Source: Spirochaetaceae bacterium (lineage in GTDB: Bacteria; Spirochaetota; Spirochaetia; DSM-2461). From it: DNA of 64,000 nt. The stretch lies in the NCBI GenBank assembly GCA_051531975.1, contig JAOPTT010000010.1:226678-290677 (forward strand), given 5' to 3'. Shown one piece after another: positions 39,412 to 64,000 of this stretch. Position 1 is the first letter of the stretch; every line of letters begins with the position of its first letter. A model generated the notes under the pieces. The model had not been told where the DNA came from. It made no database searches and saw nothing but the letters and a program-made list of their open reading frames with translations. A program made the translations under genes and the position numbers.

Positions 39412-39439
39412 GCTTCCGATAATAGGTACTCTGACTACC
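39412..39439 (+). other. dif-like recombination site (spacer TAGGTA), left edge of module array
   Basis: GCTTCCGATAA TAGGTA CTCTGACTACC. Confidence 0.7.
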
Positions 39440-39522
39440 TGATCGATAATAATTATTTTTATCAAGAAATAATGCTCCTATAAATAGTATTAGAATCTAG
39501 AAAAACTTTTCCATTTATAAAG

Positions 39523-39972
39523 TCAGTAACTAGATATAATTGAGACTACCTTTAATAAAAGCAGTAGTAATCCAAATGCATTAGAAGTTATTAGGAGAAT
39601 AATAGCTATTTGAGTTGCTTTATCCATAAGATGCATTTTTTTATTAAAAAACAAATCATAATATAATAAGACAGTAAAAGTATCAGATAAAATAACAGTT
39701 CTAATAGATCCTAATAAAGGACCAAATAGTAAAAGTATAACAGGTACAAATATTGTAACCTCATCGAAATAACCAGCTAAATAGAAAAATATAACTGAAC
39801 CAGGATAGATAAGAATTCCTATAATTGCCAAATAGTTATTCTTTACGAGTTGTATAACTTTTATTTTACCAGCAGAATTAACAAAGAACCTAGCTTTACA
39901 CTTTAAGCAAACATGTTTACCTGCTTCTACAATATCAATTTTTTTATTGCATCCAGGACATCTAATTATCAT
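39523..39972 (-). CDS. Zinc-ribbon plus membrane hypothetical protein
   Basis: CPGC...CLKC then 3 TM helices. Confidence 0.65.
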   Translation of the reverse strand: MIIRCPGCNKKIDIVEAGKHVCLKCKARFFVNSAGKIKVIQLVKNNYLAIIGILIYPGSVIFFYLAGYFDEVTIFVPVILLLFGPLLGSIRTVILSDTFTVLLYYDLFFNKKMHLMDKATQIAIILLITSNAFGLLLLLLKVVSIISSY

Positions 39973-40112
39973 ATGAAATTATTATACCTCCCTTTTAGCA
40001 AATATGTATTAATTCTATTTATTTTAAACAATCCTGTGGTTCAGGAGTAATATACTTAGTTTTTAATATATACAATGTTAGATGATGAATACATTAGATA
40101 TAGCGTATAAGT

Positions 40113-40562
40113 TCACTGCATTATAGCTTCTATAATAGGTATGTGAGTTTCTGCTATATGTATATTTAGTAATTCTGCTTTTGAAATAAATTTCAATTCT
40201 CTTGATTCCTCACTACATTTTAATTTAGAAAAATCTTTTATATGAACATTAAAGACAATTGTTATAACTCTTCTAGAATTACCATCACTATATTCAATTA
40301 TACTTGTTGGATTAGAAAGTGTTTTAAACATCTCACACTGAACAGCTTCTAACCCTGTCTCTTCTAATGTTTCTCGTATCACACAATCTTTAAAGTCTTC
40401 ATTTGATTCTAATCCTCCACCAATAAATGCCCAACGATCAGAATCGACACGATGCTCCACTAAATATTTTTGATCCTTAACTATCAATGCTACACAACCT
40501 AATAATGGTGGTAAATTTGGAATAGGAGCAGTCGGATTTTTATAATAAAATATTGCACTCAT
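40113..40562 (-). CDS. NUDIX hydrolase (cassette-like)
   Basis: GG.LE..E....C..RET.EETGL; GTTAGAA core at 40585-40591 upstream and ATCTAAC at 40077-40083 downstream. Confidence 0.9.
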   Translation of the reverse strand: MSAIFYYKNPTAPIPNLPPLLGCVALIVKDQKYLVEHRVDSDRWAFIGGGLESNEDFKDCVIRETLEETGLEAVQCEMFKTLSNPTSIIEYSDGNSRRVITIVFNVHIKDFSKLKCSEESRELKFISKAELLNIHIAETHIPIIEAIMQ

Positions 40563-40603
40563 ATAGTCTCCTAATATATATTTCTTCTAACGTTTCGATG
40601 ATA

Positions 40604-41011
40604 TTAAATTATAGCCTTAAAGAATGATTCAATATCATTTGAAATACCAGGTAACATACCTAACTCAGTAGAAATAATAGATTCTAAATACCATGAATCT
40701 TTTCCACCGGTATTTTTATTTGTTAAAATTGTTTTAATTATAATATGACCTAAATTATCGCATTTTAATTCAATTGAAAATTCTTCTTCTAATGAACTCC
40801 ATGAATATTCTCCTTTCCAGCCATTAGCATGTGATGAAACTTCTTTAAATAGTGCTATGAGATCATTGCATTTTAAATACTTATATACTTTTAATGATCC
40901 AGTACAGGACTTTGAACTAACTAACACTGTAAAATAGTCTTTTTGATTATCATATAATTTTATGTAACGATCACTTTCACTTGATTTGATAATAACTTCA
41001 TGATTATTCAT
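40604..41011 (-). CDS. Hypothetical protein (DUF6228-like), first gene after attI-like platform
   Basis: GWKGEYSWSSLE...CDNLGHI; GTTAGAC core upstream. Confidence 0.7.
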   Translation of the reverse strand: MNNHEVIIKSSESDRYIKLYDNQKDYFTVLVSSKSCTGSLKVYKYLKCNDLIALFKEVSSHANGWKGEYSWSSLEEEFSIELKCDNLGHIIIKTILTNKNTGGKDSWYLESIISTELGMLPGISNDIESFFKAII

Positions 41012-41033
41012 AAGTCCTCCTATAATTTAATTT

Positions 41034-41185
41034 GTCTAACTTAAGCAATTACGAAATATTGCTTTATTGCTTTATTGCTTTATTGCTTTATTGCTTTATT
41101 GCTTTATTGCTTTATTGCTTAAAATATAATACTTCAAATAATAAACTAAGTAACATACTTTATATATTTAATAACATTACAAATA
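41034..41185 (-). repeat. attI/promoter-like platform, copy 1
   Basis: Homologous to 43274-43377 and 63241-63307; ends in GTTAGAC before RBS and gene. Confidence 0.75.
41058..41120. repeat. 8-bp VNTR (ATTGCTTT) about 8 copies
   Basis: Seven full units plus one partial. Confidence 0.95.
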
Positions 41186-41213
41186 GATTCTTAGTTTAGG
41201 TATTCGGTCTACT
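41186..41213 (+). other. dif-like site (TAGGTA)
   Basis: GATTCTTAGTT TAGGTA TTCGGTCTACT. Confidence 0.7.
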
Positions 41214-41220
41214 TAAGGGA

Positions 41221-41308
41221 TTTTCATGTCCCCCCAGGTATATAAATGTAAGTTCTATTAGTAGTAAACAGAGTTACATACGCCAATTTAGGCTGTATTA
41301 TGTTATCC
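41221..41308 (-). other. Degenerate attC-like site
   Basis: GGATAAC after stop, internal hairpin ATGTAA/TTACAT, ends ATGAAAA 7 bp before dif-like site. Confidence 0.4.
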
Positions 41309-41314
41309 ATAAAA

Positions 41315-41776
41315 CTATTTCTTAACTAAATAAAACTTTTGATGAGGATATTCAAACTCAACTGTTAATTCTGATTCTATAAATCCAAATTTTTTATATA
41401 AAGCACGGGGTGCAGTACCCCGAATATCATTTTCACGAAAAGTTGATACCGATATTGTTGAATTATCTGGAAAAAGATTAATCATTTTATTAACCATAAT
41501 GGTTGCGACCCCATTTCTCCTATGATCTGGATGAACAGCCATACATCCAAGACAATTTGATGATAAAGAGAAAATCAAGATTCCAATAATAACATTATCA
41601 GATTTAACACATAACGCTGTGTTTCTTTTTATGTTTTTAAGAACAGTAATTCTGTAATTGATCATCTCTTCATCGGTATCAAGCCCTGGAAAATTATCTT
41701 TGACTAAACCAATCATATTCATCCACAAATCAATGTCTTTAATACCTGCGACTTCTAACTTATATTTATTTACCAA
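41315..41776 (-). CDS. GNAT acetyltransferase
   Basis: AVHPDHRRNGVAT, ALYKKFGF. Confidence 0.9.
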   Translation of the reverse strand: MVNKYKLEVAGIKDIDLWMNMIGLVKDNFPGLDTDEEMINYRITVLKNIKRNTALCVKSDNVIIGILIFSLSSNCLGCMAVHPDHRRNGVATIMVNKMINLFPDNSTISVSTFRENDIRGTAPRALYKKFGFIESELTVEFEYPHQKFYLVKK

Positions 41777-41783
41777 TTTGTTT

Positions 41784-41811
41784 CCTTCCTAATTTAGGTA
41801 TTCGGTCTACT
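41784..41811 (+). other. dif-like site (TAGGTA)
   Basis: CCTTCCTAATT TAGGTA TTCGGTCTACT; fills almost the whole intergenic gap. Confidence 0.75.
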
Positions 41812-41813
41812 AT

Positions 41814-42467
41814 TTAAATTTTATATTTGCAATTTATTATAAAATCTTTTAATGATAAGCCCATTTTTCTATCCATATGAAATACATTTAATCCTACTTC
41901 TTTAGCAGCTATAATATTTTCTATTTTATCATCAATAAAAATACAACTTGCAGCATTTTTTTGTATTTTTTCAATTGTATAAGTATATATTCTATTATCT
42001 GGTTTATCAAAACCAACATACGAAGAGATAATAATGTGTTTAAAATATTTTCTTAAATCTAAATAATCAAACGCCCAATCTAAACTTGCATTAGCATTTG
42101 ATAATACATGGAGAGTAAACTTATCTTTTAGTTTTTCTAATACACTTATGGTGTCATCAAATAACTTATATTGAAATGTATCACAATTTAATATAAATAA
42201 TTTATCTAACAATACTTCATTTTGGGGATCAATGACTGAAACAATGATCTTTGTTCGTTCTAATAACCATTTTTTTTCATCTGACCAATTGTTAATTCTA
42301 TCATATTTTTCATTATCAAAATTATTAGCTTTAGATAGAGCTAATTCTATTAGTTCTTTAGTATAATTCATTGATGATAGGATTCTTCTTGTTATGTCAT
42401 TTCTAAACTCATTTATATAAAACAGAACTCCACCTGCATCAAAAATTATAGTATCTATATTATTCAT
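41814..42467 (-). CDS. HAD-IA family hydrolase
   Basis: IIFDAGGVL, LSNA, KPD, FIDDKIENI. Confidence 0.9.
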   Translation of the reverse strand: MNNIDTIIFDAGGVLFYINEFRNDITRRILSSMNYTKELIELALSKANNFDNEKYDRINNWSDEKKWLLERTKIIVSVIDPQNEVLLDKLFILNCDTFQYKLFDDTISVLEKLKDKFTLHVLSNANASLDWAFDYLDLRKYFKHIIISSYVGFDKPDNRIYTYTIEKIQKNAASCIFIDDKIENIIAAKEVGLNVFHMDRKMGLSLKDFIINCKYKI

Positions 42468-42564
42468 TTAGCCCCTCAATAAAATTATTTTTAACATTAT
42501 TTATGCTGTAATTAAATCTATAAAATGACATTTATAATCCTTAAGTGTACATGAGAATATTAGT

Positions 42565-42592
42565 ACATCTTAATATAGGTATTCGGTCTACT
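42565..42592 (+). other. dif-like site (TAGGTA)
   Basis: ACATCTTAATA TAGGTA TTCGGTCTACT; supplies TAG stop of 42588-42911. Confidence 0.75.
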
Positions 42593-42911
42593 TTATATAA
42601 ATATAGCTTATTTTTTTAAAGTCAAAATCCATATTCATTTCTTTAATAATATTTTGTGGATATGGTCCAATTTGTAAAGCATCAAATTCAGTTATAATAT
42701 CTTCAATAACTTCAATATCTCCTTTCAGGATGTCAGACATATTAAATTGTATGTTAATGGCATTTTCAGTTATATATAAACCTATTGAGATCATATTATC
42801 AGTAATTAAACTAAAACTTGATTGAACTAAATATAATGTTTGAAGGTTTTCAAATTGTTTGCTTTTACTTATGGTACATGCATTTAATGATCTTTCTATA
42901 AAATCCTTCAC
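42588..42911 (-). CDS. Hypothetical cassette gene, possibly truncated by the dif-like site
   Basis: Starts after attC core GTTAGGC; stop lies inside the dif-like arm. Confidence 0.55.
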   Translation of the reverse strand: MKDFIERSLNACTISKSKQFENLQTLYLVQSSFSLITDNMISIGLYITENAINIQFNMSDILKGDIEVIEDIITEFDALQIGPYPQNIIKEMNMDFDFKKISYIYIK

Positions 42912-42941
42912 TTTCGTTTATCATCCTTTTTAAATAATTTC

Positions 42942-43058
42942 GCCTAACGTTCCCGAGCATACACGCAGTTATTATTTTTACCATTTTTGCAGAGCAAAAT
43001 AAAAACAGAATAATTGGCCGTAGGCTGAGCGTAGCGAAACTTGTATGCTTTGTTATAC
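42942..43058 (-). other. Integron attC site
   Basis: GTATAAC-AAAGCATAC...GTATGCTCGGGAAC-GTTAGGC, locally GC-rich imperfect palindrome right after a stop codon. Confidence 0.85.
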
Positions 43059-43062
43059 GCTG

Positions 43063-43245
43063 TTAATTATTATTAAACCTTTTGTTAAATTCTTTTTCTT
43101 CCATACGATCTTCTTTTACTTGTTTCTTTACTAAAGACTTTTCTAATAATCTTTTACCTTCATGCTCATTGGCAAAAAAGTCATTAACTTCCTTCTTACT
43201 CATCCCTTTTGTCAATTTAAATGTTTCATGGTAACTATTAGCCAT
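43063..43245 (-). CDS. Small hypothetical cassette gene
   Basis: RBS AAGGA; bounded by GTTGTAC core and attC. Confidence 0.65.
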   Translation of the reverse strand: MANSYHETFKLTKGMSKKEVNDFFANEHEGKRLLEKSLVKKQVKEDRMEEKEFNKRFNNN

Positions 43246-43273
43246 AATAAGTCCTTTAATAATAATTAATTGT

Positions 43274-43377
43274 GTACAACTTAAGCCATTACGAAATATT
43301 GCGTTTTTGCTTTAAATATAATACTTCAAATAATCAACTAAGTAACATACTTTTTATATTTAAACACATTACAAATA
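43274..43377 (-). repeat. attI/promoter-like platform, copy 2
   Basis: Near-identical to copy 1 without VNTR expansion; ends in GTTGTAC. Confidence 0.75.
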
Positions 43378-43405
43378 ACTTCTTAGGTTAGGTATTCTGT
43401 CTAGT
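43378..43405 (+). other. dif-like site (TAGGTA)
   Basis: ACTTCTTAGGT TAGGTA TTCTGTCTAGT. Confidence 0.7.
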
Positions 43406-43407
43406 TG

Positions 43408-44463
43408 TTAAATATTATTGACTGAATAATCTAACTTAAATGGTAACTTATTTTTAATTTTTTTTAATACAATTCCAGTACGACTATCAACAATTACTTT
43501 CCAATATATTGAGAAATAGCTTAAATATCTATCTTGAAAGATACTTGATTCTGCTCTTCTAGGTTTATCTTTAATTAATTCTAATTGATATTCATTTTGA
43601 AATTCTTTATCCAACATAATAGTTGGAATTATATTGGTATTGATATTGGTAAGTATCTTATAGTCTAGGTTCATCATTGAGGCTATAATTTTTAACTTTT
43701 GATAGAGTTCCATTCGAACTAACAACTCTTTATATGACATATCTAATGATATTTCATTTGTTTCTAAATTAGTAATTTTGGCGAAAAAATCTAACTTATT
43801 ATTATCAATATTCTTATATATTTCATTAAATGTTGAATCTAATAATTCATCTATTTTATTTGATAGATGTTGTTTTTTCTTATCTCCCTTTAATCTCATA
43901 TTTTCTTTAATGATTTCTTTTTGATCTTTATATTTCGTAGCTGCATTTTTATCAATAGTTAAGTCTCTTAGTGATATGTTTAATAAGCTTCTATCTTCAT
44001 TATGCAACTGAGGAGGTACTGAAGCAAAAAAAAGTCCCTCTTCATTATTTTGTGTATGTGTACTAAGCAGCTGAGTATGTAAATGTAAATCCCCTAGTAG
44101 ATCAAATCCAGAAACTATTTCTATATGTTCATTAATATACTTAGTTAATGCTTCTTGATCAATTTTATCAACACTATTCCCTAAAACGTATTCAAACTCT
44201 AATATCATTAAATTTAATGATGATGGAGGGCCATTTAGATTTTTTATTTTGTAAAAGTATTCAACACTTTGCAAAGATTTTAATCGTTCTTTTCTAATCC
44301 CATCATTTTTATAATTCATAAGCTCTTTTAAATTATTCATTGTAAAAAGAGGAATAAATCCTTTTTTATATAAATCATTAATTTCATCTTTTAAATTCTT
44401 TTTTTTAATCATATTACTCCATGTCGAAGTATCTAGAATTATTGGTCTTGTGAAAATTATCAT
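43408..44463 (-). CDS. Hypothetical protein, possible PIN-like nuclease
   Basis: IILDTS at N-terminus, ..KEL, C-terminal QD...VD acidic residues. Confidence 0.5.
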   Translation of the reverse strand: MIIFTRPIILDTSTWSNMIKKKNLKDEINDLYKKGFIPLFTMNNLKELMNYKNDGIRKERLKSLQSVEYFYKIKNLNGPPSSLNLMILEFEYVLGNSVDKIDQEALTKYINEHIEIVSGFDLLGDLHLHTQLLSTHTQNNEEGLFFASVPPQLHNEDRSLLNISLRDLTIDKNAATKYKDQKEIIKENMRLKGDKKKQHLSNKIDELLDSTFNEIYKNIDNNKLDFFAKITNLETNEISLDMSYKELLVRMELYQKLKIIASMMNLDYKILTNINTNIIPTIMLDKEFQNEYQLELIKDKPRRAESSIFQDRYLSYFSIYWKVIVDSRTGIVLKKIKNKLPFKLDYSVNNI

Positions 44464-44562
44464 AAAAATCCTTAAAAAATTGATATCACTAAATTATGAT
44501 GCTAAATACTTATATTTCAAGAAAAATAATCTGTCTCTATTATGGGGTATACCAGTTTGAAT

Positions 44563-44627
44563 TTTTAACGGCCTGTTGAGAATAAAGTCTGTTCCAAAAT
44601 ATTTTATTTTCCAACAGTTTGTTATGT
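44563..44627 (-). other. Integron attC site (65 bp)
   Basis: ACATAAC-AAA-CTGTTG(G)AAAATAAA...TTTATTCTCAACAG-GCC-GTTAAAA with an unpaired G. Confidence 0.8.
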
Positions 44628-44637
44628 ACCTATTTAC

Positions 44638-45657
44638 TTATGAAAGTATATCTAATTCATATTCATCTATATATTTATTAATTGGAATGTCAAACTCTTT
44701 ATACAGTTCATACGTAGTTGAATTAATTCCTGACCATTTTTCTTTCCAGCAATCATCAAAGTATTTCTTATCATCTTTTATAATTAGTAAATCTCTTATT
44801 AAACCTAGAATATTTGTATTTTCTCCAATCTTTTTTTTATATTCTAAATATTTATCATTATCTATTAAACTCAACTCTTTTATATTTTTAATACCAAATA
44901 TATTTAATTCATCAATTATTTCTGTACTATTTTTTCGCCATTCATTTGGTGATATTTTCTGTATAATTGCTGAATAAACACTAGAGTTGAAATATTCAAG
45001 TAAAGTTGTTGAATTAATTTCATAATCAAACTTTTGATTGTTAAATTTTTCTTTTATTTCTATTGTATATTCTTCTATATCTTTAGCGATGTTATTAAAT
45101 TCATTATCAGCTACTTCTAAAACAGCAGATATTAAATTAAAACGTCTCTTAATTTCTGTTGGTAAGGTACCACTAAATTTGTAATTTTTATCATGTTCAA
45201 TTTCAGCCCATGTATGTTGTAATAGTGTTCTTATTTGAATTTCAAATACATAATTTTTAAAATTAGAATACTCTGGTAATAAACATCTATTACTATTAAT
45301 TTTGCATATATAATGTATAGATCTATAGCCAATTTTATTTATTCCCAAATCTTCATTCTTATTTGAAGTTTCATTCTGATCTATATCAAACTCATCTTCA
45401 ATTAATTTACATATTGTTGTAACATCATCTTGAACATATGCTATTATCCTAAGTCCTATATAGTCTTTTATTTCATATTTAGGATTTTTATAATTTTCTG
45501 CTTTAGTTAAAAAACTTTTTAGTGATTTTGCTCTTCCATTAATATCGTGAACTTCCAAAGAATTTACAGCAATGATCCTTTTTAATAATTCATTAATTGT
45601 TATTGTAGCACTTTCATATAGTGGTAATTTATTATTATAATAATTTTTCAGTTCCAT
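44638..45657 (-). CDS. RelA/SpoT-domain small alarmone synthetase with C-terminal extension
   Basis: R.KS..S...K, DYIGLRII, GYRSIHY, EIQIRTLLQHTWAEIEH. Confidence 0.9.
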   Translation of the reverse strand: MELKNYYNNKLPLYESATITINELLKRIIAVNSLEVHDINGRAKSLKSFLTKAENYKNPKYEIKDYIGLRIIAYVQDDVTTICKLIEDEFDIDQNETSNKNEDLGINKIGYRSIHYICKINSNRCLLPEYSNFKNYVFEIQIRTLLQHTWAEIEHDKNYKFSGTLPTEIKRRFNLISAVLEVADNEFNNIAKDIEEYTIEIKEKFNNQKFDYEINSTTLLEYFNSSVYSAIIQKISPNEWRKNSTEIIDELNIFGIKNIKELSLIDNDKYLEYKKKIGENTNILGLIRDLLIIKDDKKYFDDCWKEKWSGINSTTYELYKEFDIPINKYIDEYELDILS

Positions 45658-45757
45658 TTTATTTCCTAATCTTGATTTTTTATACTATGACTTGCTTACT
45701 GTTTCATGTGTCATTTTTTTTCATATTATTTCCTTATGTTCAATTTTTTAAACTGTC

Positions 45758-45779
45758 GCTTCCTAGTATTCGTTCTACA
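45758..45779 (+). other. Internally deleted dif-like site
   Basis: GCTTCC-TAGTA-TTCGTTCTACA. Confidence 0.5.
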
Positions 45780-45786: not shown

Positions 45787-45902
45787 TTTTTACGTTCTCA
45801 TCAGCTGTTTTACTTGCTGGAGTGAACCTAGGTGTTTGAGGAATATTATTTTTCTGCAGATAGTTTTAAAACAGTAAAATCTATTCCAAGAGTTTATTAA
45901 AT
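45787..45902 (-). other. Degenerate attC site
   Basis: ATTTAAT-AAAC-TCTTGGAATAGA matches left end of 51569 attC; ends GTAAAAA 7 bp before dif-like remnant. Confidence 0.55.
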
Positions 45903-45942: not shown

Positions 45943-46725
45943 TTATTTTAGTTCATCTTCAATGTTATTAATGTCATAAATTATATTATCTATAAATTGT
46001 GATCCTAAAGAAGTTATTTTAAGTTCTGCTTTATTTGTTGAGTTTTCAATTACTTCAAAAATCTCTTTTCTGTAGTCATCTATTATATTTTCTATAGTAC
46101 TACTTTTGTAATTACTAGGAAATGAATAATTAAAACTAGAATTTATATCCAAAGTTCTTCTTAAAAGAGCAAAATTTTGTAAACTTGAAGTATTAAAATC
46201 AAAATGGTTCTGGCATAGTTCTAACTTTTTTATATCTCTAATGTGTACAGCTGGTGGCATAATTATATCTGGATAAATAAATTCTAATTTAGAACGCGTA
46301 GGGTATAATTCATTATTTTCTTTTGTATGAAAATATATGAGAATTATAACTTGTTCATATGTAATATCTTCTAAAATAGCAATAAATTTTTCTGTGATAT
46401 TAGGTTCTATTTCTTCATATATTCCCTTTCCTATTATCGATGTAATCCATTCCCTTTTTTTCTTATTATTAGTTTTAGCAGAAATTCTAATACCTTCTTC
46501 TAGTAGGAAAAGAGCATCTAAATTACTCTTACATTTATCCTCAATATCCTCAAACCTTGTTGATAATAACTTAAGAAAATCTGTGACTCTATCCATCCGC
46601 TGATTAGGTATAATTGCTGAAACTAATTCACCCAGAAATGTTCCTGCTAAAGGTACAGCTCCTAGAGTAGATTTTATTGCAGAATTTACTACATCAATCC
46701 TATTATTTGATAAATTTTCATTCAT
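45943..46725 (-). CDS. Hypothetical protein (Abi-alpha-like N-terminus, tentative)
   Basis: LGAVPLAG..LGEL....IPNQRMDR..DFL; C-terminal ITSLG.QF. Confidence 0.6.
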   Translation of the reverse strand: MNENLSNNRIDVVNSAIKSTLGAVPLAGTFLGELVSAIIPNQRMDRVTDFLKLLSTRFEDIEDKCKSNLDALFLLEEGIRISAKTNNKKKREWITSIIGKGIYEEIEPNITEKFIAILEDITYEQVIILIYFHTKENNELYPTRSKLEFIYPDIIMPPAVHIRDIKKLELCQNHFDFNTSSLQNFALLRRTLDINSSFNYSFPSNYKSSTIENIIDDYRKEIFEVIENSTNKAELKITSLGSQFIDNIIYDINNIEDELK

Positions 46726-46758
46726 ATTTTCCTCATCCTTTTTTATATATTAATTAAA

Positions 46759-48060
46759 TTAAGATAATACTCTTCTTATAGTTTCTATTAGTGATTTTAA
46801 TAAATATAATATTCTAGTTAAAGGAAAAACAGATGATATAACAGCAATTATGGCAATTACTAATGCATCAAATCCAAAGTTCGTTGAATATATAGATATT
46901 GCATCATTTAAATTGTTTCTAGTCATTTTTAGTTCTTTTTCTATTCCTATAAGTTGCTTTCTTAAAATATTATTGAAGTTAGAATATAAGGGTTTAACAG
47001 GGTTATTATCGATAGGTACTAATAAGTCACTTTCTATTTTAACTTTGTAAAAATGAGGAACAACTCTTTGGGTATTTTCTTTTTTATCTCTTTCTTGTCC
47101 AACGATCCACATAGTGAAAGGAATATTAATATAGCTGACACCATATTCTAGATATTTTTCTAGCTTATCAGTGTATAATAAATACTTAGGATAAATACTT
47201 TCAAGGTCGAAAATTGTTTTGGGTATATTTTTTAAATAATTCCAACTTTTAAATCTTTTAAAAATATGTAATAAATTACTTGGGACTCCGTGTAAAGAAT
47301 TAATTATTTGATCATTTAATTTTATAATTTGTTTTTGAATCTTTGATAATTTATTTTGAAATAACTCAAAATCATTATATAGGAGAATATCTAAACATAT
47401 TCTATCTCTAATTACTTTCTTGTTTTCCCCAAAATAAACTGAATATAATCTGCCTTGATTATGTATTTGTTTATCTCCAATATTAGTCAAAGAAAAAAAA
47501 CGATTATCATTAAGATCTAATTTAAACACTGGATAATCAGCATCAGTTTTTAACTTTAAATCTTCTAAGTTATTGTATAAAACATCCCAGAATGGATTTG
47601 GAATCCAATGTATTTCAATATTTAATTTTCTTGAAATACTTAGACATTGATTTCTAAACGCTAGTTCAGAAGAAGTTTTTTCATTGAGTTGCTCAATTAT
47701 AAAGCTATTTTCTTCAATTTGCATTGTAAAAAAAATCATCATTCCATCATAGAATATCTCAATAATGCCCTCTTCGGTTTGATATTTAATAAATAACTGA
47801 TAAGGAAATCCTAAATAAGATGTCTCATGAATAACTTTTATGTATTTTATATTTTCTATATTTATAATCTCATTTTTTATATCCAGTAATTCTTCTTTTA
47901 TATTTCTACAGAAGAGATGATTAATGTACCCTAGATTAATATCGTCATTGTCAAAATCTTCTTCAATAGTAGTATTCCAATCAATTTTTCTTGATAATAT
48001 AGGTTTCTCAGGGATACTACAGAAATTTAGAGCTAAATTATTTATTTTTACTTTTTCCAC
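46759..48060 (-). CDS. Hypothetical protein with coiled coil and C-terminal TM
   Basis: 433-aa ORF; hydrophobic C-terminus. Confidence 0.65.
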   Translation of the reverse strand: MEKVKINNLALNFCSIPEKPILSRKIDWNTTIEEDFDNDDINLGYINHLFCRNIKEELLDIKNEIINIENIKYIKVIHETSYLGFPYQLFIKYQTEEGIIEIFYDGMMIFFTMQIEENSFIIEQLNEKTSSELAFRNQCLSISRKLNIEIHWIPNPFWDVLYNNLEDLKLKTDADYPVFKLDLNDNRFFSLTNIGDKQIHNQGRLYSVYFGENKKVIRDRICLDILLYNDFELFQNKLSKIQKQIIKLNDQIINSLHGVPSNLLHIFKRFKSWNYLKNIPKTIFDLESIYPKYLLYTDKLEKYLEYGVSYINIPFTMWIVGQERDKKENTQRVVPHFYKVKIESDLLVPIDNNPVKPLYSNFNNILRKQLIGIEKELKMTRNNLNDAISIYSTNFGFDALVIAIIAVISSVFPLTRILYLLKSLIETIRRVLS

Positions 48061-48211
48061 AACAACCTCAGAAATTTTTAAATTATATACCGTTTTAATA
48101 TTAAGTTACGCATGAAATTTTAATTGTTTATTTAAGTGTAAAAATCACCGATTTATCGTTGATTAAGTTTATCTTATTACTGTCTGTATACAAACTAAAT
48201 ATATTCCCTTC

Positions 48212-49282
48212 TCATGAATCAAGGTTATTAGATATATATATTTCATCTCTAATTTTTCTTTGAATTGAATTGTTTGATGGATAATAATTCGAATCTAAAA
48301 TTTTATTATTCTCTTTAAGATAGTTTTTGTAATTCGATAAAATTTCCTCAAAAAATCCCAAATCTAAAGTATTCTTTTTCAAACCCACTTGAATAATTTT
48401 ATTTAAAGCCATTGTTAACCCACCAAAACCTGCAGTACGATTTATTATGTACTTTTTAGGATCGTTCCATTCTAAATTAAAAATGTTTTCGGCAGCTTTA
48501 AAATAATTGAAAATGATTTTATAAATAATGGAATCTTCTTCCCTTATAAAATAATATCTTAGAGGGAGCATTTCATCAGGAACTATTTTTTTTCTGTTTT
48601 TTATGTTTATAGTATCTTCTTTTGGTTTTTTAGAAATTAAATTAATAAGATAATTTACAAAAGTACCTTGAGATATCGTTTCTGAATCTAATTGTTTTTT
48701 CCCTAACATTTTTAAACGCCGATAAAATGGTGAATTTTCATCAGAATTTAAAGCTCTTGCTAATTCATGCATAGTCTTAAATGGACTTCTTGTTTCTGAA
48801 ATATGAAACAAATCATATATTAAAGATGGATCAATTTTTTTTTGGTTAGAATTTATTGTTGAAAAAACGTAGGCTTTTTCTTCTTCTGTAAGATCAGGCA
48901 TTATTACAAGAGGTATTTGAATTGATTTATTTAAGGAACTTTCTGTTATACCTAATAATCTATGCTGACCATCAATTATTTCAAATAAATTTTTTTCATT
49001 TTCGTTAAACTCTATTGTATTATTATCTATAGTAAAATTATCACTATCTATTGAAACAATTATTGCAGATGGAAAAGTTGCATCGGGATCTTCACAGTAT
49101 TTTTGAATATTTTTAATTCTTTCCTTTGAATCTTTTCTCTGAATACCACCTGAAGATATAAAAAGTTGAGGGTCATAATCACGTCTATTAATAAAACAAT
49201 ATTTGTATAATAAATTTATTTCAATAACAGATAAATAGTAAGAACCTATTGGTTGAGTTATAGTAAGATATTGGAGTTTCAT
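48212..49282 (-). CDS. DGQHR-domain (DndB/ParB-like) protein
   Basis: GIQR, FPSAII, IIDGQHRL, FSTINSNQKKI. Confidence 0.9.
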   Translation of the reverse strand: MKLQYLTITQPIGSYYLSVIEINLLYKYCFINRRDYDPQLFISSGGIQRKDSKERIKNIQKYCEDPDATFPSAIIVSIDSDNFTIDNNTIEFNENEKNLFEIIDGQHRLLGITESSLNKSIQIPLVIMPDLTEEEKAYVFSTINSNQKKIDPSLIYDLFHISETRSPFKTMHELARALNSDENSPFYRRLKMLGKKQLDSETISQGTFVNYLINLISKKPKEDTINIKNRKKIVPDEMLPLRYYFIREEDSIIYKIIFNYFKAAENIFNLEWNDPKKYIINRTAGFGGLTMALNKIIQVGLKKNTLDLGFFEEILSNYKNYLKENNKILDSNYYPSNNSIQRKIRDEIYISNNLDS

Positions 49283-49809
49283 ATTTTTATTCCCCTATTG
49301 TCATTTTTGATATTCTTTGATTTGTTTTTGATTTGTGAAACTATTTTATCATCTTGTTCTTTGAAATTATCCATATCCATATGTAAATATAAGGAAAGGT
49401 AGGAATATACAATAATAAGTATACCTATTGTATATATTCCAACCTGCAACCAAAGTTTTGTATTTGTAATAATATTTGTTAAATCTGATAAAAGAAAACT
49501 GGATATAATTATTGATAATATAGAACAAGCAATCAAAAATAATTTATATGATTTAAAATGAGCTGCAGTATCAGAAAAAGTTGATTTTATAATTAAATAC
49601 ATAGAAGAACCTAATAAAGGAATTATTGTATTATATAATAAACCTGTTTCTGAAAATGAGATTAATCCTTTTAAAATATCATCCTGGTTTAGAATTATCT
49701 GAAAAATTGGTAAAAATAAACCCAATTGACCAATAATTAATGTAAATAAAATAAATGTATAAAATTGCCATTTAATACTCTTTATAATTTTGAATGGTTT
49801 TATAATCAT
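49279..49809 (-). CDS. 4-TM membrane protein translationally coupled to DGQHR gene
   Basis: Four hydrophobic helices; ATGA overlap. Confidence 0.75.
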   Translation of the reverse strand: MIIKPFKIIKSIKWQFYTFILFTLIIGQLGLFLPIFQIILNQDDILKGLISFSETGLLYNTIIPLLGSSMYLIIKSTFSDTAAHFKSYKLFLIACSILSIIISSFLLSDLTNIITNTKLWLQVGIYTIGILIIVYSYLSLYLHMDMDNFKEQDDKIVSQIKNKSKNIKNDNRGIKI

Positions 49810-49926: not shown

Positions 49927-50517
49927 CTAAGATTTAAGGAAATTATACAAAGTAGTCCGACTAATCCCAACAGCACTAGCTACTACACTTTTTTGTTCAC
50001 CTAAAGATAACAAAGCATTTATTTGTGATGCCTTTTGCTTTGTTATCTTGGTAGATCCTTTAGGTCTACCAAGGATTACACCTCTATCTTTTGCTCTTTG
50101 AATACCTAGCTTTGTTCTTTCACCTAATAGCTTAACTTCTCTTTTTGCTAATGATAGCTGCAGGTCGAATATAAACTCTTCTTCTGCTGACATTCCCTTC
50201 TTGATTGTTAAGTTAGACATTACGACATAGATCTCTAGATCTTCTCTTACATCTGTTATATGCCTTAGTAGCTTTAAACCATCCCTGGTATTTCTTCCTA
50301 TCCTGGATATCTCTGTTACTACTATCTTTTTAACTTCTGGGTTTATGATATGATCCCAGAGTTTCCGGTTCTCTAATTTGGTTTTAGAAGCTGATACTTG
50401 CTCCAGGATAATGTCATCGAATGTGATACTCATCATCTCTTCGTATCTTTCGAAAAAGGTTCGGTATTTATCTTTGTCCTGGGCTACAGAACTTATTCTA
50501 CTGTATGCAATTATCAT
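49927..50517 (-). CDS. Serine recombinase (resolvase/invertase)
   Basis: YSRISS..Q, EISRIGRN, ERTK.G...AK..G..LGRP, C-terminal HTH GISRTTLY. Confidence 0.92.
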   Translation of the reverse strand: MIIAYSRISSVAQDKDKYRTFFERYEEMMSITFDDIILEQVSASKTKLENRKLWDHIINPEVKKIVVTEISRIGRNTRDGLKLLRHITDVREDLEIYVVMSNLTIKKGMSAEEEFIFDLQLSLAKREVKLLGERTKLGIQRAKDRGVILGRPKGSTKITKQKASQINALLSLGEQKSVVASAVGISRTTLYNFLKS

Positions 50518-50944: not shown

Positions 50945-51496
50945 TTGAATTCAGAAATAATATGGATAATTCCAAATCCTACATTTAATTCATCAATTTA
51001 TATAATATCAATAATTATTGGTTCATTGTTTTTACTTGTTCAATTCATAGATAAAATTAATTTAAATATAAGATTCTCTAAATTTAATAATTTAAAAAAT
51101 AAAATATCTGATATAAAAAGGAATTTAGATGTTTCATTGATTCCAATAAGTATTATTTTTTTTATCATACCAATAATACTATATTCAGTATCATCGGAAA
51201 AAAGTTCCTTTAATGATTATGTATTAAACTCTAAGACAATGACTATTGAAGGTATTGTTAATGTTGAAAATGAACAACCCAAAATTGGTCATGCTAGTGG
51301 AGACAAAATTACTATTGGGACAACGACATTTATTTATAGTTATTTTTATAGTACTTCATTTTACAATATTACAATTTCACATGGTGGGATATTAACTCAT
51401 GGTGCAAATGTAAAGATTCAATATATTCCAACAACCGGCAACGAATATAACTATTTTGGTGATGGTAAAATAATTAAAATAGAGAAACAGATATAA
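50945..51496 (+). CDS. Hypothetical membrane protein (cassette-like)
   Basis: 2 TMs plus soluble C-domain; followed by attC. Confidence 0.65.
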   Translation: MNSEIIWIIPNPTFNSSIYIISIIIGSLFLLVQFIDKINLNIRFSKFNNLKNKISDIKRNLDVSLIPISIIFFIIPIILYSVSSEKSSFNDYVLNSKTMTIEGIVNVENEQPKIGHASGDKITIGTTTFIYSYFYSTSFYNITISHGGILTHGANVKIQYIPTTGNEYNYFGDGKIIKIEKQI

Positions 51497-51568
51497 AATA
51501 AGTTAGTAAAATATTATGGTATAAAAATAAAGATAGTTACAAAATTATTATAAACAATCAGGTATGAA

Positions 51569-51721
51569 TTTTAACAAAGTCTTGGAACAGACTTCACCTT
51601 TATCACTATTCTTGCAAAATAAAAACTAAACCTCTAGTTCCACACCCTAACTTAAAATGACTAGCTTAAATACAAGAATAGCGCCAACAGAGACGGCTTG
51701 CTGCTCAAGAAAGCGTAAAAA
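51569..51721 (+). other. attC site with degenerate R' core
   Basis: TTTTAAC-AAAG-TCTTG(G)AACAG...CTATTCTTG/CAAGAATAG...CTGCTCAAGA-AAGC-GTAAAAA. Confidence 0.7.
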
Positions 51722-51728
51722 CTTATAA

Positions 51729-51756
51729 AGTAGACAGAATGATAATTATCGGAAGT
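51729..51756 (-). other. dif-like site (TTATCA), best match to consensus
   Basis: ACTTCCGATAA TTATCA TTCTGTCTACT. Confidence 0.8.
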
Positions 51757-53767: not shown

Positions 53768-53795
53768 GCTTCTGATAATTATCATTCCGTCTACT
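53768..53795 (+). other. dif-like site (TTATCA)
   Basis: GCTTCTGATAA TTATCA TTCCGTCTACT. Confidence 0.8.
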
Positions 53796-58734: not shown

Positions 58735-58856
58735 GTGTACCAAAAGTATGGAGCTGACCGTCTTTTGGTACATATCCTGAATGAAAAATGCAAGATAAGC
58801 GCCAATCCTTCCACTTCGTTCCAGGCACAAGCCGGTAGCTCATACAGACGTTAAAA
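58735..58856 (+). other. Orphan attC site
   Basis: GTGTACC-AAA-GTATG(G)AGCT(G)ACCG...CGGTAGCTCATAC-AGAC-GTTAAAA; two unpaired bases. Confidence 0.75.
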
Positions 58857-59461: not shown

Positions 59462-59489
59462 TTTAAACTGAGTGATAATTATCAGAGGT
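59462..59489 (-). other. dif-like site (TTATCA)
   Basis: ACCTCTGATAA TTATCA CTCAGTTTAAA. Confidence 0.6.
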
Positions 59490-59593: not shown

Positions 59594-59879
59594 AATTATC
59601 TGCTCAACTTTTATTATTTTTTAGTTAATTCTTTTTTAGGAATATATTGTTTAGATTACTATAATCAGTGGCTTTGAAGTATATATCATCCTGCTTTGTT
59701 CCATGAGTAGTAGGATCATAGTTGTCTAAAAAAAGATTATATTTAAAATTCCCATAGGTAGCACTGGTCTCTATGTACAAGATAATAATAGGGGTGATCG
59801 AGGTTTCACTTCTTATCAAAAATTGAATAATGAGAATTGTATTCTTCCTTTAAAGAATTATATTTATAAATTATCATTT

Positions 59880-60464
59880 TCATTTGAACTTTCTTAAATA
59901 ATTATTAACAATTTTATTGGCTTGATCTTGTAGATTCCCTGGTTGCCTATCAAACCAACCTAAACCATTGAATCTTTTTGTTTCTAAAACTGACGTTTTG
60001 TCACGCCATCCAATGACATTTGTTTCCTTTGGTAGTTCCTTTTTCCAATCTGAAATATAGTCTCCCTGGTGGCAGTTCTCAAAAATAACTGTTTCTAAGT
60101 TTTTGCTTACATTAATATATTTTAAATCATAAGGAGTTAGTCTTTTATCATCAGAAGTTTGGATCATCGCACTTCTCTTACCATGGCCACTAATAACAAT
60201 CATTCTAGCTTCTTGATCTGTAAATGCATCTAAAACATCTTGCTTTGTTGCATCATAATCAACAACAACTTCCAAACCATTTTCTCTAAGATATTTAACT
60301 TCTTGCTTAATAGAATTTAGTTCACGATTTTTCATTTTTTGATCTTTTTTTGAATCTGACTTATAGACGTACAAGAAATAAACTTGAGCTAACCTATTCG
60401 GATCTATAAAGTTAATCGGATTCTTTTCTATATGCTTATCCAAGGTGCCACTATATTTAGTCAT
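59880..60464 (-). CDS. Orphan Rhs C-terminal tip, putative caspase/clan-CD-like peptidase
   Basis: NPINFIDPNRL junction motif; IVISGHG and VIFENCH His/Cys dyad pattern. Confidence 0.65.
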   Translation of the reverse strand: MTKYSGTLDKHIEKNPINFIDPNRLAQVYFLYVYKSDSKKDQKMKNRELNSIKQEVKYLRENGLEVVVDYDATKQDVLDAFTDQEARMIVISGHGKRSAMIQTSDDKRLTPYDLKYINVSKNLETVIFENCHQGDYISDWKKELPKETNVIGWRDKTSVLETKRFNGLGWFDRQPGNLQDQANKIVNNYLRKFK

Positions 60465-60534
60465 TTTAATACTTTAACCCTTAATTATTATCTGTGCCAC
60501 CTAATTAAATTAATCTAGATTAAATTTTGATAAG

Positions 60535-60562
60535 AGTTGACTTAGTGATAATTATTGGAAGT
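60535..60562 (-). other. dif-like site (TTATCA)
   Basis: ACTTCCAATAA TTATCA CTAAGTCAACT. Confidence 0.7.
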
Positions 60563-60587
60563 AAATTTTATTCTAACTTCCTTGAAC

Positions 60588-61080: not shown

Positions 61081-61224
61081 TTGCTATCCCTCTTAGTGAA
61101 TTACGGGGCATAAATGTAATAGAGTAAAATTCTATGAAATAATTAGTATCTATCTACTTTTACAAGATCAATAATAGCAACAGTATTGATTTTTAAATAT
61201 AAGAAGTAGTGATACATTATATGT

Positions 61225-61500
61225 ATGGGTGTAATAAATGTAAAAATTAAAGTTTATGGTAGAGTTCAAGGGGTCTGCTTTAGAGCATTAACAAAGAAAA
61301 GTGCTATAACTCTAGGTATTAATGGCTGGGTTAGAAATTTATCTGACGGTACCGTAGAGATTGAATGTGAATCTACTCTAGATAAAATAGAACAACTAAT
61401 CTCCATTCTAAAAGTTGGGAACGGTTTCTCCAGGGTAGATAAATTCTACAAGACAGAGGGGGTATTTGTAGGTTATCAATCATTTAAGATAGTGTATTAG
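61225..61500 (+). CDS. acyP: Acylphosphatase
   Basis: GRVQGVCFR, GWVRNLSDGTVE. Confidence 0.92.
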   Translation: MGVINVKIKVYGRVQGVCFRALTKKSAITLGINGWVRNLSDGTVEIECESTLDKIEQLISILKVGNGFSRVDKFYKTEGVFVGYQSFKIVY

Positions 61501-61592
61501 TTTCATACTAATTAATATAAAAAATATTTGGTAAAAGAGGTGACTTTATAACAATAGGGGTTAATTCTATATTGTAATCATTCCCCATAGAT

Positions 61593-61988
61593 CTATTCAT
61601 TTAATACAAGATTTTCTATCTGTTTATAAATATATTTTGCTTCTCTATAAAAGTCCTTTGACCTTTCAATAGATAAAGATCCATATGGTAATAGTCCCAT
61701 ATCAGCTGGATATCTTACATCTATATACGTTTCAGAAATTTCTTCTAAAAGAGTCATATCAATATCTAATTTACAATAATTTCGGACTGAACCATATAAT
61801 CTTAAAAGATTGTGTTTCATAGGCACATTTTCAGTATTTAAACAGATTATAGCTTTAAAACATTTTTCTACGCACTGATGACAATGAAAGGCAACTACGT
61901 TAGTTAAATCTTCATCATCAAGTAATTAGGTAACAGTCTTTAAATCTTTGAATGCAAATAACAACCACTCTTTAACTAACTTGTTCAT
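61593..61988 (-). pseudogene. HEPN-domain protein with premature stop
   Basis: MNKLVKEW...KTVT*(61926-61928)...FHCHQCVEKCFKA...KHNL...RYP. Confidence 0.8.
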
Positions 61989-62316
61989 AAAGAAGTATTC
62001 CTTTTTCAGTTATCTCGGTCATAAATGTTTTATTGAATTGATTTAAGATTTTAAATTCTTCTTTAGTATAAACAAGTATATCAATAGAAACTTCCATACT
62101 TAATTCAAGTATGGTATTTCTGACTGTAACTTTATTTCTAAGTTTCTCATCATAAGTTTTAGGCATATCATCAGTATTTAAGATTACTGCTAAATCAATA
62201 TCGCTATCTTGGTTCTCAGTTCCTCTAGCAACTGAGCCAAACATATAAATTTGAAAAGGGTCTATTTCCTTTAGAGATTCAACAATTTGTGGGATATAAC
62301 CTCTTAAATCATTCAT
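61972..62316 (-). CDS. Minimal nucleotidyltransferase (MNT)
   Basis: MFGSVARG...DSDIDL. Confidence 0.92.
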   Translation of the reverse strand: MNDLRGYIPQIVESLKEIDPFQIYMFGSVARGTENQDSDIDLAVILNTDDMPKTYDEKLRNKVTVRNTILELSMEVSIDILVYTKEEFKILNQFNKTFMTEITEKGILLYEQVS

Positions 62317-62537
62317 ATTAAAAATAGTACCTCATTTGTGATTTATTATCTATAATATTTTTATATGACATAGATATAACCTTCCACTATGATAAAATAT
62401 AATTTCTTGTTTGTGTATTTCTCTTGTGTTATGACTCAATAATAACAAATCCAACCAATAGAACAATAATTTCATTTTGGTTATAATCTCCACGATTGGT
62501 TGGGTAATCTACTGATGTTGTGTAGCTTATAGATCCA

Positions 62538-62990
62538 TCATGATTCATCATGATTCATCATAATTATATATTTTTGATAATATATATCTAATGATATTTC
62601 AAATTCTATTTCAAATGAATAAAATCCAAATGATTTTTTACTCTCTATTTCATCATCTAAATTATAGTTCGTTGTATAATTACCTTTAAGAGTAGATTCT
62701 CCTATATCTTCTGTTTCATCAGAATTACCTTTAAAAGTTGGGGAGATGCTATTTCCTATAGAGTCTCTTTTAAATACTTGAGAAAATTTATTTTCTGATA
62801 AAAAGGTTATTGGAGTCTCTTTTTTTTCAGGGTGAAAATCAAATGGGAAACTTTGCTCATTAGAAAAGAAAAGTGGACCATCTAGTGTAGAACATATCTG
62901 ATACTCTTCTTTGAAAATAATTTTTGTAAATGGTAATGAATATATTGATACTGACAAAAACAATAGAACTGTACTTATTAAAAACTTCAT
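62538..62990 (-). CDS. Hypothetical secreted protein
   Basis: N-terminal signal-like peptide. Confidence 0.5.
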   Translation of the reverse strand: MKFLISTVLLFLSVSIYSLPFTKIIFKEEYQICSTLDGPLFFSNEQSFPFDFHPEKKETPITFLSENKFSQVFKRDSIGNSISPTFKGNSDETEDIGESTLKGNYTTNYNLDDEIESKKSFGFYSFEIEFEISLDIYYQKYIIMMNHDES

Positions 62991-63101
62991 TTAAATATCC
63001 TATATAATAATATATGATAAGTACTACTTTTATTTTTAGATGACTGAAATTATATTATCGTAAGAAAGAAGCTGTAAGAGATGATTTAGAGATCTATGTG
63101 G

Positions 63102-63228
63102 AAATGGAACAATTCATCTCCATTCTAGAAGTGGGGAACGATTTCTCCAGGGTAGATAAACTCTACAGGACAGAGAGGGCATTTGTAGGTTATCAATCAT
63201 TTAAGATAGTATATTAGTTTCATACTAA
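63102..63228 (+). pseudogene. Duplicated 3' part of acylphosphatase gene
   Basis: Diverged copy of about 61385-61512. Confidence 0.85.
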
Positions 63229-63240
63229 ATAATATATTTA

Positions 63241-63307
63241 AAAATTCGTTGTTTGAAGTACTATACTAAAAGTAATAACGCAATATTTCGTAATTGCTAA
63301 GTTAGGC
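63241..63307 (+). repeat. attI/promoter-like platform, copy 3 (inverted relative to copies 1-2)
   Basis: TTTGAAGTACTATA...GCAATATTTCGTAATTGCTAA-GTTAGGC. Confidence 0.75.
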
Positions 63308-63330
63308 TAAATTTAAGCTTAGGAGTTTTT

Positions 63331-63777
63331 ATGAAAGAAATAACAATTAAACCATTTAAACCAGAGTACCAGGAAGAGTGCAAAAATATCATACTCATGG
63401 GATTAGAGGAACATTGGGGTCTTCTCGATCTAAGTCTTAATTCAGACCTTAATGATATCGAATCGTACTATCAAAATGATATTTTTTTAACAGGTTGGCT
63501 TAACAATGAGTTGATTAGCACAGGTGCTGCAAAACTTTTAGCTAATGGGACAGCCCAAATAGTCAGAATGTCTGTTCTTAAAAAGTATAGGTCACATGGT
63601 ATTGGTAAAAAAATGCTGGAAGCGCTAATAGATAAAATAAAGTACTTTGGTGTAACTGACATTGTATTAGAAACAACTACTGAATGGAAAAGTGTTATAT
63701 TATTTTATGAAAACAATGGATTTATTTTATCTCATAAAGATCATGAAAACAGTTACTTTAAATTGTTAATAAACTAA
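63331..63777 (+). CDS. GNAT acetyltransferase gene cassette
   Basis: RMSV.KKYRSHGIG, FYENNGF; core GTTAGGC upstream, inverse core ACCTAAC at 63784-63790. Confidence 0.9.
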   Translation: MKEITIKPFKPEYQEECKNIILMGLEEHWGLLDLSLNSDLNDIESYYQNDIFLTGWLNNELISTGAAKLLANGTAQIVRMSVLKKYRSHGIGKKMLEALIDKIKYFGVTDIVLETTTEWKSVILFYENNGFILSHKDHENSYFKLLIN

Positions 63778-64000
63778 AACTTCACCTAACACAGCCTTAA
63801 TATTTCGACCTCGTCTCGATCTTCTAGCAGTTTTAATATATAAGATAATTTCATAAAATATTCTTGTTTGTAAAAAGTATTTGACATAAATATTCTTTAG
63901 TACTAATGTATTAGTAGTAACGCATTAGTTAATAACATAAGGATGAATTAATGAATAAAAAAAAGTCTATTGGTAATAGAGAGATGATGATTTTAAATAT

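Follow-up and report, generated by a model that had tools for sequence, protein, structure and literature searches.

We analysed 64,000 nucleotides of DNA from a Spirochaetaceae bacterium (the window; G000:C10:226678-290677, G000 being the source genome) and found that positions 39412-63790 make up a composite island, not a series of alike modules, in which a stack of dif-like sites, i.e. presumptive targets of the XerC and XerD recombinases, adjoins the insertion site (attI) of an integron. As far as the sequence can tell, the joining of a dif stack to an integron attI, seen in this one genome plus one further junction, appears to be new; a literature search, with most subscription journals and supplements outside it, yielded no account of attI or attC sites within dif modules, nor of dif modules in spirochaetes. 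The reading that we favour, with a probability of about one half (0.52), is that of a Xer (dif-module) island that acquired integron parts, whereby units would have been stacked one by one by Xer recombination, cassettes would have been captured by the attI's own recombinase, and the whole would by now be mostly fixed.

The evidence centres on a recurrent sequence, here termed the platform, copies of which head two units of the stack (A and D; Table 1). These copies are 89% identical over 110 bp and each lies directly against a XerC arm, the order on the cassette strand being dif-like site, platform, GTT core and cassette, which is the arrangement that an initial annotation of the stretch had put forward. 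Over four platform copies (three from the window and one from the sister species, G001) the identity amounts to 82-93% before the GTT and to 25-46% after it, and their first cassettes, which are joined at G|TT, differ from copy to copy. In each of the three testable cases the core of the first cassette agrees with the inverse core of its own attC at three of the four variable bases (joint P 7e-4 against a null of real inverse cores; the cassette with DUF6228 is excluded, as that end is lost). An attI followed by cassettes that are joined at G|TT is what characterizes an integron, and on these sequence relations we regard the platform as a genuine IntI-type insertion site; an intI gene adjoining the attI, as in a complete integron, is missing from the island. 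The annotation had named the platform a promoter/attI, and of this the attI half holds in view of the breaks at G|TT and the recombinase-linked homologue described below, whereas promoter-like matches show no excess (51 versus 56.5 in shuffles, none being listed on the cassette strand inside the two platforms). A role of the 18-bp palindrome as the box of a global regulator (e.g. an SOS box) was ruled out, the motif occurring at four places in the genome, all in accessory DNA. As a separate observation, positions 41057-41120 of copy A comprise eight tandem 8-mers, a unit that occurs once or twice in the other copies and the number of which slippage could vary; the count rests on the assembly, because no listed long contig spans 41087-41306.

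The origin of the platform can be traced in G001, where a second copy, recovered by a relaxed search, lies 77 bp past the stop of a co-oriented tyrosine recombinase gene and heads an attC array, with a first cassette of which the core matches the inverse core at 7/7 positions. The homology runs from the first base after the recombinase stop codon to the G|TT. The stretch between stop and palindrome matches copies D and A (p 0.001 and 0.009, even without the motif used for finding it), matches the copy on contig C25 of G000 weakly (p 0.04) and does not match the copy at 63301 (p 0.21). In copies A and D the homology begins 22-23 bp from the XerC arm, where the recombinase gene is expected to end, and a dif site stands in the gene's place. 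Judged by this homology, the attI at the head of units A and D is that of an inverted integron-like element that has lost its recombinase gene; a search of G000 for that gene yielded short fragments on C3 and C7 only. The G001 enzyme has neither mark of an integron integrase, as the IntI insertion is missing from it and its score on the integron-integrase model TIGR02249 is 172 bits (cut-off 265). Its locus (L188:13941-14806; G001:C1:1897923-1898805, minus strand) has a first cassette with 4.9 kb of restriction-modification-like genes, and is possibly an integron-like system run by an enzyme without the insertion; the true start of the gene is uncertain, because the open frame measures 352 amino acids (aa). 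Behind the other G001 platform copy (L019:6940-9336) the first cassette holds a tyrosine recombinase and an IS91-family transposase, with an attC at its end. Enzymes related to the recombinase of L188 occur in 13/121 genomes of the class, and at 6/15 loci a cassette-like core lies downstream at a distance of up to 260 bp, versus a background of 5% (the motif was written after seeing three loci; of 18 loci given, two had no row and one too little flank). An attC search of 14 short loci with model R1 (see below) found none.

Tyrosine recombinase genes of any kind are absent from C10, and the window has no intI or xer gene, as annotated initially. The sole integron integrase of G000 is encoded on C8 (386 bits versus the cut-off of 265) and has its own attI and attC array, and xerC and xerD both lie on C17 (best matches to TIGR02224 and TIGR02225, slightly below the curated cut-offs). 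IntI is frequent in the family (24/38 genomes) and G001 also has a long form. That the platform is the attI of the resident C8 enzyme was ruled out, since the C8 attI is unrelated to it (alignment p 0.9).

The dif-like sites were located with a matrix that was trained on five sites outside the window and ignores the spacer; it gave eight matches of at least 14 bits in 39400-63800 versus 0.12 expected, which bears out the initial identification. They are 28-bp sites with a 6-bp spacer and with arms resembling those of the host dif, i.e. pdif-type sites in a host that encodes XerC and XerD, and their spacers fall into two classes, TAGGTA and TTATCA. The arms that we take to be XerC and XerD are named by their resemblance to textbook dif sites. 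The site at C6:356277 is regarded as the chromosomal dif, because it recurs as a single copy in most relatives and is positioned near the GC-skew turn of C6. A strict dif pattern is matched in 131/401 genomes: six times in G000, three times in the relative G006, twice in three genomes and once in the others.

Six co-directional sites, which have the spacer TAGGTA with the exception of one variant, form the stack proper (39412-45779) and bound five co-oriented units, A-E, of 1774, 598, 781, 813 and 2374 bp. The XerC arm is intact (11/11) solely at 39412, which is likely the entry site of the stack, and retains 5-6/11 bases at the other stack sites, of which the internal ones keep just 1-2 of the inner five; the outer XerC bases are kept across five TAGGTA sites, and the XerD arms stay at 10/11 up to the final, most degenerate site. 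Every gene of the stack is read away from a XerC arm and towards the XerD arm that follows, with three stops 2, 2 and -5 bp from the XerD arms and one start 7 bp from a XerC arm. Direct repeats with one intact site at the growing end are a feature of the arrays of integrative mobile elements that exploit Xer (IMEX). Inverted sites and alternating C and D modules are not seen in the TAGGTA stack, and are seen for the pairs 45752/51729 and 51729/53768, the latter enclosing a gene for an FGE-sulfatase-like protein in a classical C-type module. The span had initially been annotated as dif-bounded mini-integron modules; of the five units, A and D begin with a platform and three are without one, and the platform also occurs without dif (twice in G001 and once on C25). 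On the gene strand, the XerC arm of site 41784 supplies the likely ribosome-binding site of the GNAT gene of unit B (region 41770-41794).

A course of events compatible with the favoured reading would be the following. A single ancestral event would have joined the attI to a TAGGTA XerC arm with loss of the recombinase gene, after which descendant copies would have acquired different cassettes independently. Small circles with one TAGGTA site would have entered serially at 39412 via the host XerCD, leaving the circle-derived arms inside; the rightmost unit is proposed to be the oldest, because 39412 retains the sole intact XerC arm. The polarity of the stack supports such repeated Xer integration by analogy with the Vibrio IMEX arrays, which have a usable site at one end and degenerate arms inside (PMC9226527). 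As at the pdif sites of Acinetobacter (PMC13141974), matching of the spacer would set the target, and the altered spacer would prevent recombination with the chromosomal dif. The cassettes would mainly have been captured by the enzyme belonging to the attI itself, at an earlier time or in a different cell, and the resident IntI would have been a weak substitute at most. The eroded attCs and the degraded inner XerC arms suggest that the stack is now largely fixed, and because, in addition, the attI is without its own enzyme, present activity is doubtful.

Several observations weigh against this course of events. Loss of inner XerC bases impairs the Xer sites of Acinetobacter (10.1101/2024.04.09.588662), which leaves the integration of circles with such losses unexplained, and the recombination of attCs by an enzyme without the IntI insertion is predicted only, in a species (G001) that has a long IntI too. 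Neither an empty site nor a strain pair or circle came to light; the marR-CDF flank is present without the island in G001, but that is a different species. Reads of sequencing run X1, which probably stems from the source sample, show no joint that skips a unit, and the joints that they do show are not counted as excision, because their sides are short and compatible with repeats or other contigs. The TAGGTA class was found in none of the genome contigs outside G000 and in none of the viral contigs scanned, and in 60 other genomes of the phylum it has two one-mismatch matches, no more than the control. The initially proposed stacking and moving by Xer is thus backed by the polarity of the stack, but not by intact inner arms, strain breakpoints or circles.

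The attC sites were searched with a covariance model, R1, built from eight attC sites outside the window; it is limited to one attC family, does not detect the sites at 42942 and 41221 or those in L019, and replaced two home-made heuristics that were too insensitive or too noisy (one gave 38 hits per 25 kb genome-wide). It has four matches in the island, at 58735-58856, 51569-51721 (49.7 bits), 44563-44627 and 45787-45902 (29.2 bits), and none above 17.5 bits in the first 39 kb of the window; an Rfam scan of 37000-64000 gave no matches. Initially, three attC-like hairpins had been described as ending 7 bp before the same arm of a dif-like site. Those at 51569-51721 and 45787-45902 do so at precisely these coordinates, but fold no better than shuffles (z -0.34 and -1.34), and the one at 41221-41308 stays weak, because it has no R1 match, a z of -0.56 and only ends like those of the second attC family. 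The site at 42943 also folds no better than shuffles, and 44563-44627 forms the expected fold (z -1.66). Of the 19 R1 matches in G000, the remaining 17 neither end in GTA nor show the 7-bp spacing.

These junctions also bear on the idea of a dedicated and active enzyme-free unit (dif-attI-cassettes-dif), maintained by selection, which the resident IntI would load and XerCD would move, and in which GTAAAAA, located 14 bp away from the XerD arm, would be a second programmed insertion point. Two different attCs beside two spacer classes share the ending and the 7-bp gap (P 7e-5 for two equal gaps, by permutation over intergenic positions, in a test picked after seeing the data), and GTAAAAA is found at that place in 0/25 rows (23 distinct loci) of canonical dif sites of relatives. 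Moreover, the dif-attI spacing is constant in three diverged instances, all enzymes are encoded in G000, and IntI uses attG hotspots efficiently (10.1101/2022.09.11.507474). We nonetheless hold this idea to be unlikely. The attI of the resident IntI is unrelated, and attI sites are said to be recognised solely by their cognate integrase (PMC2095811), which also argues against present activity; the attCs of the stack are eroded or cut, and the GTA of the dif-side junctions differs from the GWT consensus of attG. The platform core occurs in 2/401 genomes and in none of the metagenome and viral contigs, and no R1-family attC was found in five dif arrays of relatives (R1 covering one family only). 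The initial proposal of a dif-bounded unit served in trans accordingly fits the anatomy, dif-attI-cassette-dif, and the presence of xerC, xerD and intI elsewhere in the genome, but not the kinship of the C8 attI. A wider variant strikes us as rather doubtful, namely a two-layer enzyme-free capture unit of spirochaetes, in which the Xer module would carry an attI only, the recombinase (short or IntI) would act in trans, stacking would be one-way at a spacer-addressed entry site, and the XerD arms may guide cassettes to the point 14 bp away.

The opposite possibility is that the overlap is accidental, i.e. that decayed integron arrays of the type known as clusters of attC sites lacking integrases (CALINs) were caught in an ordinary dif-module island, the junction being one copied accident, with cassettes placed beforehand and no function as a unit. 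The island does hold a CALIN (at least two attCs and no intI nearby), with its four R1 matches and additional second-family sites, and orphan attCs are common in G000, where at least 13 of the 19 R1 matches lie away from intI. The junction arose once, platforms without dif occur, and several attCs are cut right at a XerD arm, as blind capture predicts: in unit E the XerD arm replaces the remaining attC 1 bp after the inverse core of the 351-aa cassette, and the HAD cassette is alike, though less clearly. On the other hand, the homologous dif-linked copies differ in their cassettes exactly from G|TT, from which it follows that capture continued after, or independently of, the formation of the junction, and the stops at the XerD arms are placed more tightly than blind capture suggests. 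We therefore rate such an accident as improbable. Further attC clusters or single sites away from intI lie at C22:29092-41731, C3:197609-205013, C3:86178, C5:237164 and C25:66315; none has a platform or dif-like site within 1.5 kb, save for the cassette-free platform near the C25 site.

In cer- and psi-type Xer sites an accessory region adjoins the XerC arm, and the platform might likewise be an accessory region or a regulated promoter, in which case the internal TAGGTA sites would be XerD-only half-sites and the cassettes would have landed there as they would at any other attG hotspot. The platform lies against a degenerate XerC arm and contains a palindrome, and the C25 copy, which has G|AT, no cassette and no dif nearby, precedes a methyltransferase-like gene; degenerate inner XerC arms with accessory sequences, as well as XerD-only sites, have been described (PMC9226527). 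However, the homology spans the region from the recombinase stop codon to the G|TT in G001, both copies there are without a dif site nearby, and the outer XerC bases are conserved across five TAGGTA sites, so that we consider this explanation highly improbable. Nor does the platform resemble an attG (a GWT crossover without kinship to attI), being homologous to a recombinase-linked attI; the dif-side junctions, for their part, read GTA.

As to the spread of the components, a depth-6 contig of run X1 has the platform, 26 letters that are absent from G000 and a TAGGTA site, at the spacing of the window (one table row), and the junction thus keeps its spacing in three diverged instances. The relatives carry dif arrays or the attI, never both, and the dif-attI junction, which is of single origin, is known only from G000 and this one co-occurring contig. 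A sixth good TAGGTA copy bounds a second island on C1 of G000, together with a resolvase (87%) and a TTATCA end, and a 32.8-kb plasmid-like contig of G001 has a 76% copy of the resolvase and one dif-like site; the island of the window is probably of plasmid origin. The C1 island (L047, G000:C1:41000-60500) also carries large defence-like genes, and a split transposase with 65-bp inverted repeats lies directly outside its TAGGTA site. Three relatives (G042, G043 and G006) have arrays of same-direction dif-like sites that enclose one or two genes; the spacers vary, and the genes are of opposite polarity to those of the stack. In these arrays (L165-L169; G042:C94, C125 and C135, G043:C123, G006:C1) the XerC arm is often preceded at about 17 bp by an inverse-core-like 7-mer, a 250-bp end is shared, and one of them (L167) holds ParA and a replication-like gene. 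The one module seen in more than one context is a NUDIX module, which occurs with the same spacer in G042 and G043 but is placed differently in the two. These arrays with their common module, the X1 contig and the resolvase copies speak for the favoured reading. When non-canonical spacers were scanned for, 19 loci came up in one scan and 31 in another, for the most part ordinary dif or single att-like sites, with no stack among the 14/19 and 31/31 examined.

The genome of G000 measures 5.46 Mb at ~31% GC in an assembly that is 98.5% complete, and gene content and relatives point to a free-living spirochaete. The island is AT-rich accessory DNA, flanked on the left by marR-CDF (38720-39229) and on the right by a gene that is truncated by the end of the window. 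The core of unit C is preceded by a short stretch similar to the attI beside a long IntI in genome G019, and the HAD and GNAT cargo of the units has no close relatives in 37 genomes of the family or in plasmids. TTATCA sites at four places (60387-60565 of the window, C1:55120-55286, C1:56756-56919 and C3:109163-109340) share a 165-bp flank that runs into what is left of an Rhs core motif, beyond which each place has a small gene of its own; these may be dif-borne orphan toxin or immunity modules. Apart from the island, G001 has many near-identical 400-bp gene-less cassettes in tandem, both in an integron and in a distant attC cluster (L073 and L082, G001:C1 near 3603000-3610000 and 1670700-1676000), and four metagenome contigs (L105, L108, L124 and L127) have same-direction dif-like pairs 63 bp apart beside large defence-like genes.

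Table 1. Features of the island, with positions in the window
Feature	Position	Strand	Description
dif-like site	39412..39439	+	TAGGTA; XerC 11/11; left island end
Unit A, last gene	39523..39972	-	149 aa, no family match; end 83 bp before XerD arm
Unit A, cassette 2	40077..40591	-	core 40585-40591; NUDIX gene 40113-40562; inverse core 40077-40083 (6/7 complementary); eroded attC beyond
Unit A, cassette 1	40592..41040	-	core GTTAGAC 41034-41040; DUF6228 gene 40604-41011; only right end of attC left
Orphan attI, copy A	41040..41185	-	crossover G 41040; 18-bp palindrome 41045-41062; homology to G001 post-recombinase stretch from ~41162, then ~23 bp to XerC arm
dif-like site	41186..41213	+	TAGGTA; XerC 5/11, XerD 10/11
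Weak attC-like remnant	41221..41308	-	eroded; 7 bp before XerD arm; ends resemble second attC family
Unit B, GNAT gene	41315..41776	-	TTG start 7 bp after next XerC arm
dif-like site	41784..41811	+	TAGGTA; XerC 6/11, XerD 10/11
Unit C	41814..42495	-	HAD hydrolase 41814-42467, stop 2 bp from XerD arm; GTT core 42489-42495
dif-like site	42565..42592	+	TAGGTA; XerC 5/11, XerD 10/11
Unit D, cassette 2	42588..42948	-	core 42942-42948; 107-aa gene, stop codon within XerD arm; attC gone
Unit D, cassette 1	42942..43280	-	core GTTGTAC 43274-43280; 60-aa open reading frame from 43245; second-family attC 42942-43058
Orphan attI, copy D	43280..43377	-	crossover G 43280; palindrome 43285-43302; homology to G001 post-recombinase stretch from 43355; 22-bp linker to XerC arm
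dif-like site	43378..43405	+	TAGGTA; XerC 5/11, XerD 10/11
Unit E, cassette	43407..44569	-	core 44563-44569; 351-aa gene 43408-44463; inverse core 43407-43413
Unit E, RelA/SpoT-domain gene	44638-45657 (unit part 44563..45657)	-	PADLOC PDC-S33 match; best-kept attC 44563-44627
Most degenerate stack site	45752..45779	+	spacer CTAGTA; arms 5/11 and 8/11
attC	45787..45902	-	eroded; 78% to attC of C8 integron; ends GTAAAAA, 7 bp before XerD arm
Defence-like cargo, central module	45943..49809	-	Abi-alpha-like (below cut-off), 433-aa uncharacterised, DndB/DpdB-like, 176-aa membrane protein
Serine resolvase	49927..50517	-	87% DNA copy in dif-bounded C1 island; 76% on G001 32.8-kb plasmid-like contig
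183-aa gene and attC	50945..51721	+	attC 51569-51721
attC	51569..51721	+	eroded; ends GTAAAAA, 7 bp before XerD arm
Near-canonical dif-like site	51729..51756	-	TTATCA
Near-canonical dif-like site	53768..53795	+	TTATCA; inverse of 51729
attC	58735..58856	+	additional site, not beside dif site
Degenerate dif-like site	59462..59489	-	TTATCA
Degenerate dif-like site	60535..60562	-	TTATCA; 165-bp flank common to C1 and C3 sites
Weak dif-like site	63038..63065	-	~180 bp upstream of third attI copy, gene fragments between
Third attI copy with cassette	63249..63836	+	crossover G 63301; GNAT gene 63331-63777; shortened attC 63784-63836

The island shares with the pdif modules of Acinetobacter (PMC13141974, PMC6449649, 10.1101/2024.04.09.588662) the 28-bp sites with a conserved XerD arm and a more variable XerC arm, the two classes of spacers other than that of the chromosomal dif, the extra chromosomal sites and the accessory cargo, and its TTATCA pair (51729/53768) forms an inverted module of the classical kind. 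The Acinetobacter modules alternate between the C and D types, direct CD modules being the product of fusion (same sources), whereas we find, in the Spirochaetota, six direct sites with one spacer, short units, genes packed against the arms, and attI and attC parts; the word 'integron' is absent from the accessible text of PMC13141974. The tandem array with a usable site at one end and degenerate inner arms is reminiscent of the Vibrio cholerae IMEX (CTX, TLC and RS1; PMC9226527), but the island is on C10, a different contig from that of the chromosomal dif, and at least 356 kb away from the latter, its units measure 0.6-2.4 kb and are without phage or replication genes, and the degenerate arm is XerC, whereas it is XerD in TLC.

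On the integron side, attC cassettes far from intI in an IntI-encoding genome, for which use in trans has been proposed, are known from CALINs, single attC sites lacking integrases (SALINs) and attG (PMC4889954; 10.1101/2022.09.11.507474). Unlike those, the head site is here a conserved attI of traceable origin, fixed beside a dif-like site, and not an arbitrary GWT. The inverted Treponema-type integrons (PMC3607928), in which the recombinase gene is transcribed towards attI and cassettes, have the layout that G001 shows with the same attI, but in the window the recombinase gene is missing and the G001 enzyme is without the insertion; the published association of integron-like recombinases without the insertion is with IS91 and IS3 elements and not with cassette arrays (10.1101/542381). 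Elements at a fixed short distance from a dif arm are also seen with the IS1202 family at pdif, where the insertion sequence (IS) lies 5 bp from the XerC arm (PMC10132070), whereas the attC cassettes here end 7 bp from the XerD arm.

The above extends dif modules to the spirochaetes, in the form of a same-direction, same-spacer stack that is unlike the Acinetobacter pattern, and G001, where an attI with an attC array adjoins the gene of a recombinase that lacks the IntI insertion, offers a testable case, as that insertion is held to be necessary for attC recombination. If the favoured reading is true, integron cassettes would gain a route between replicons that needs neither a transposase nor an encoded recombinase, and one origin of integrase-less cassette arrays would be an attI that was severed from its gene and carried off by Xer.

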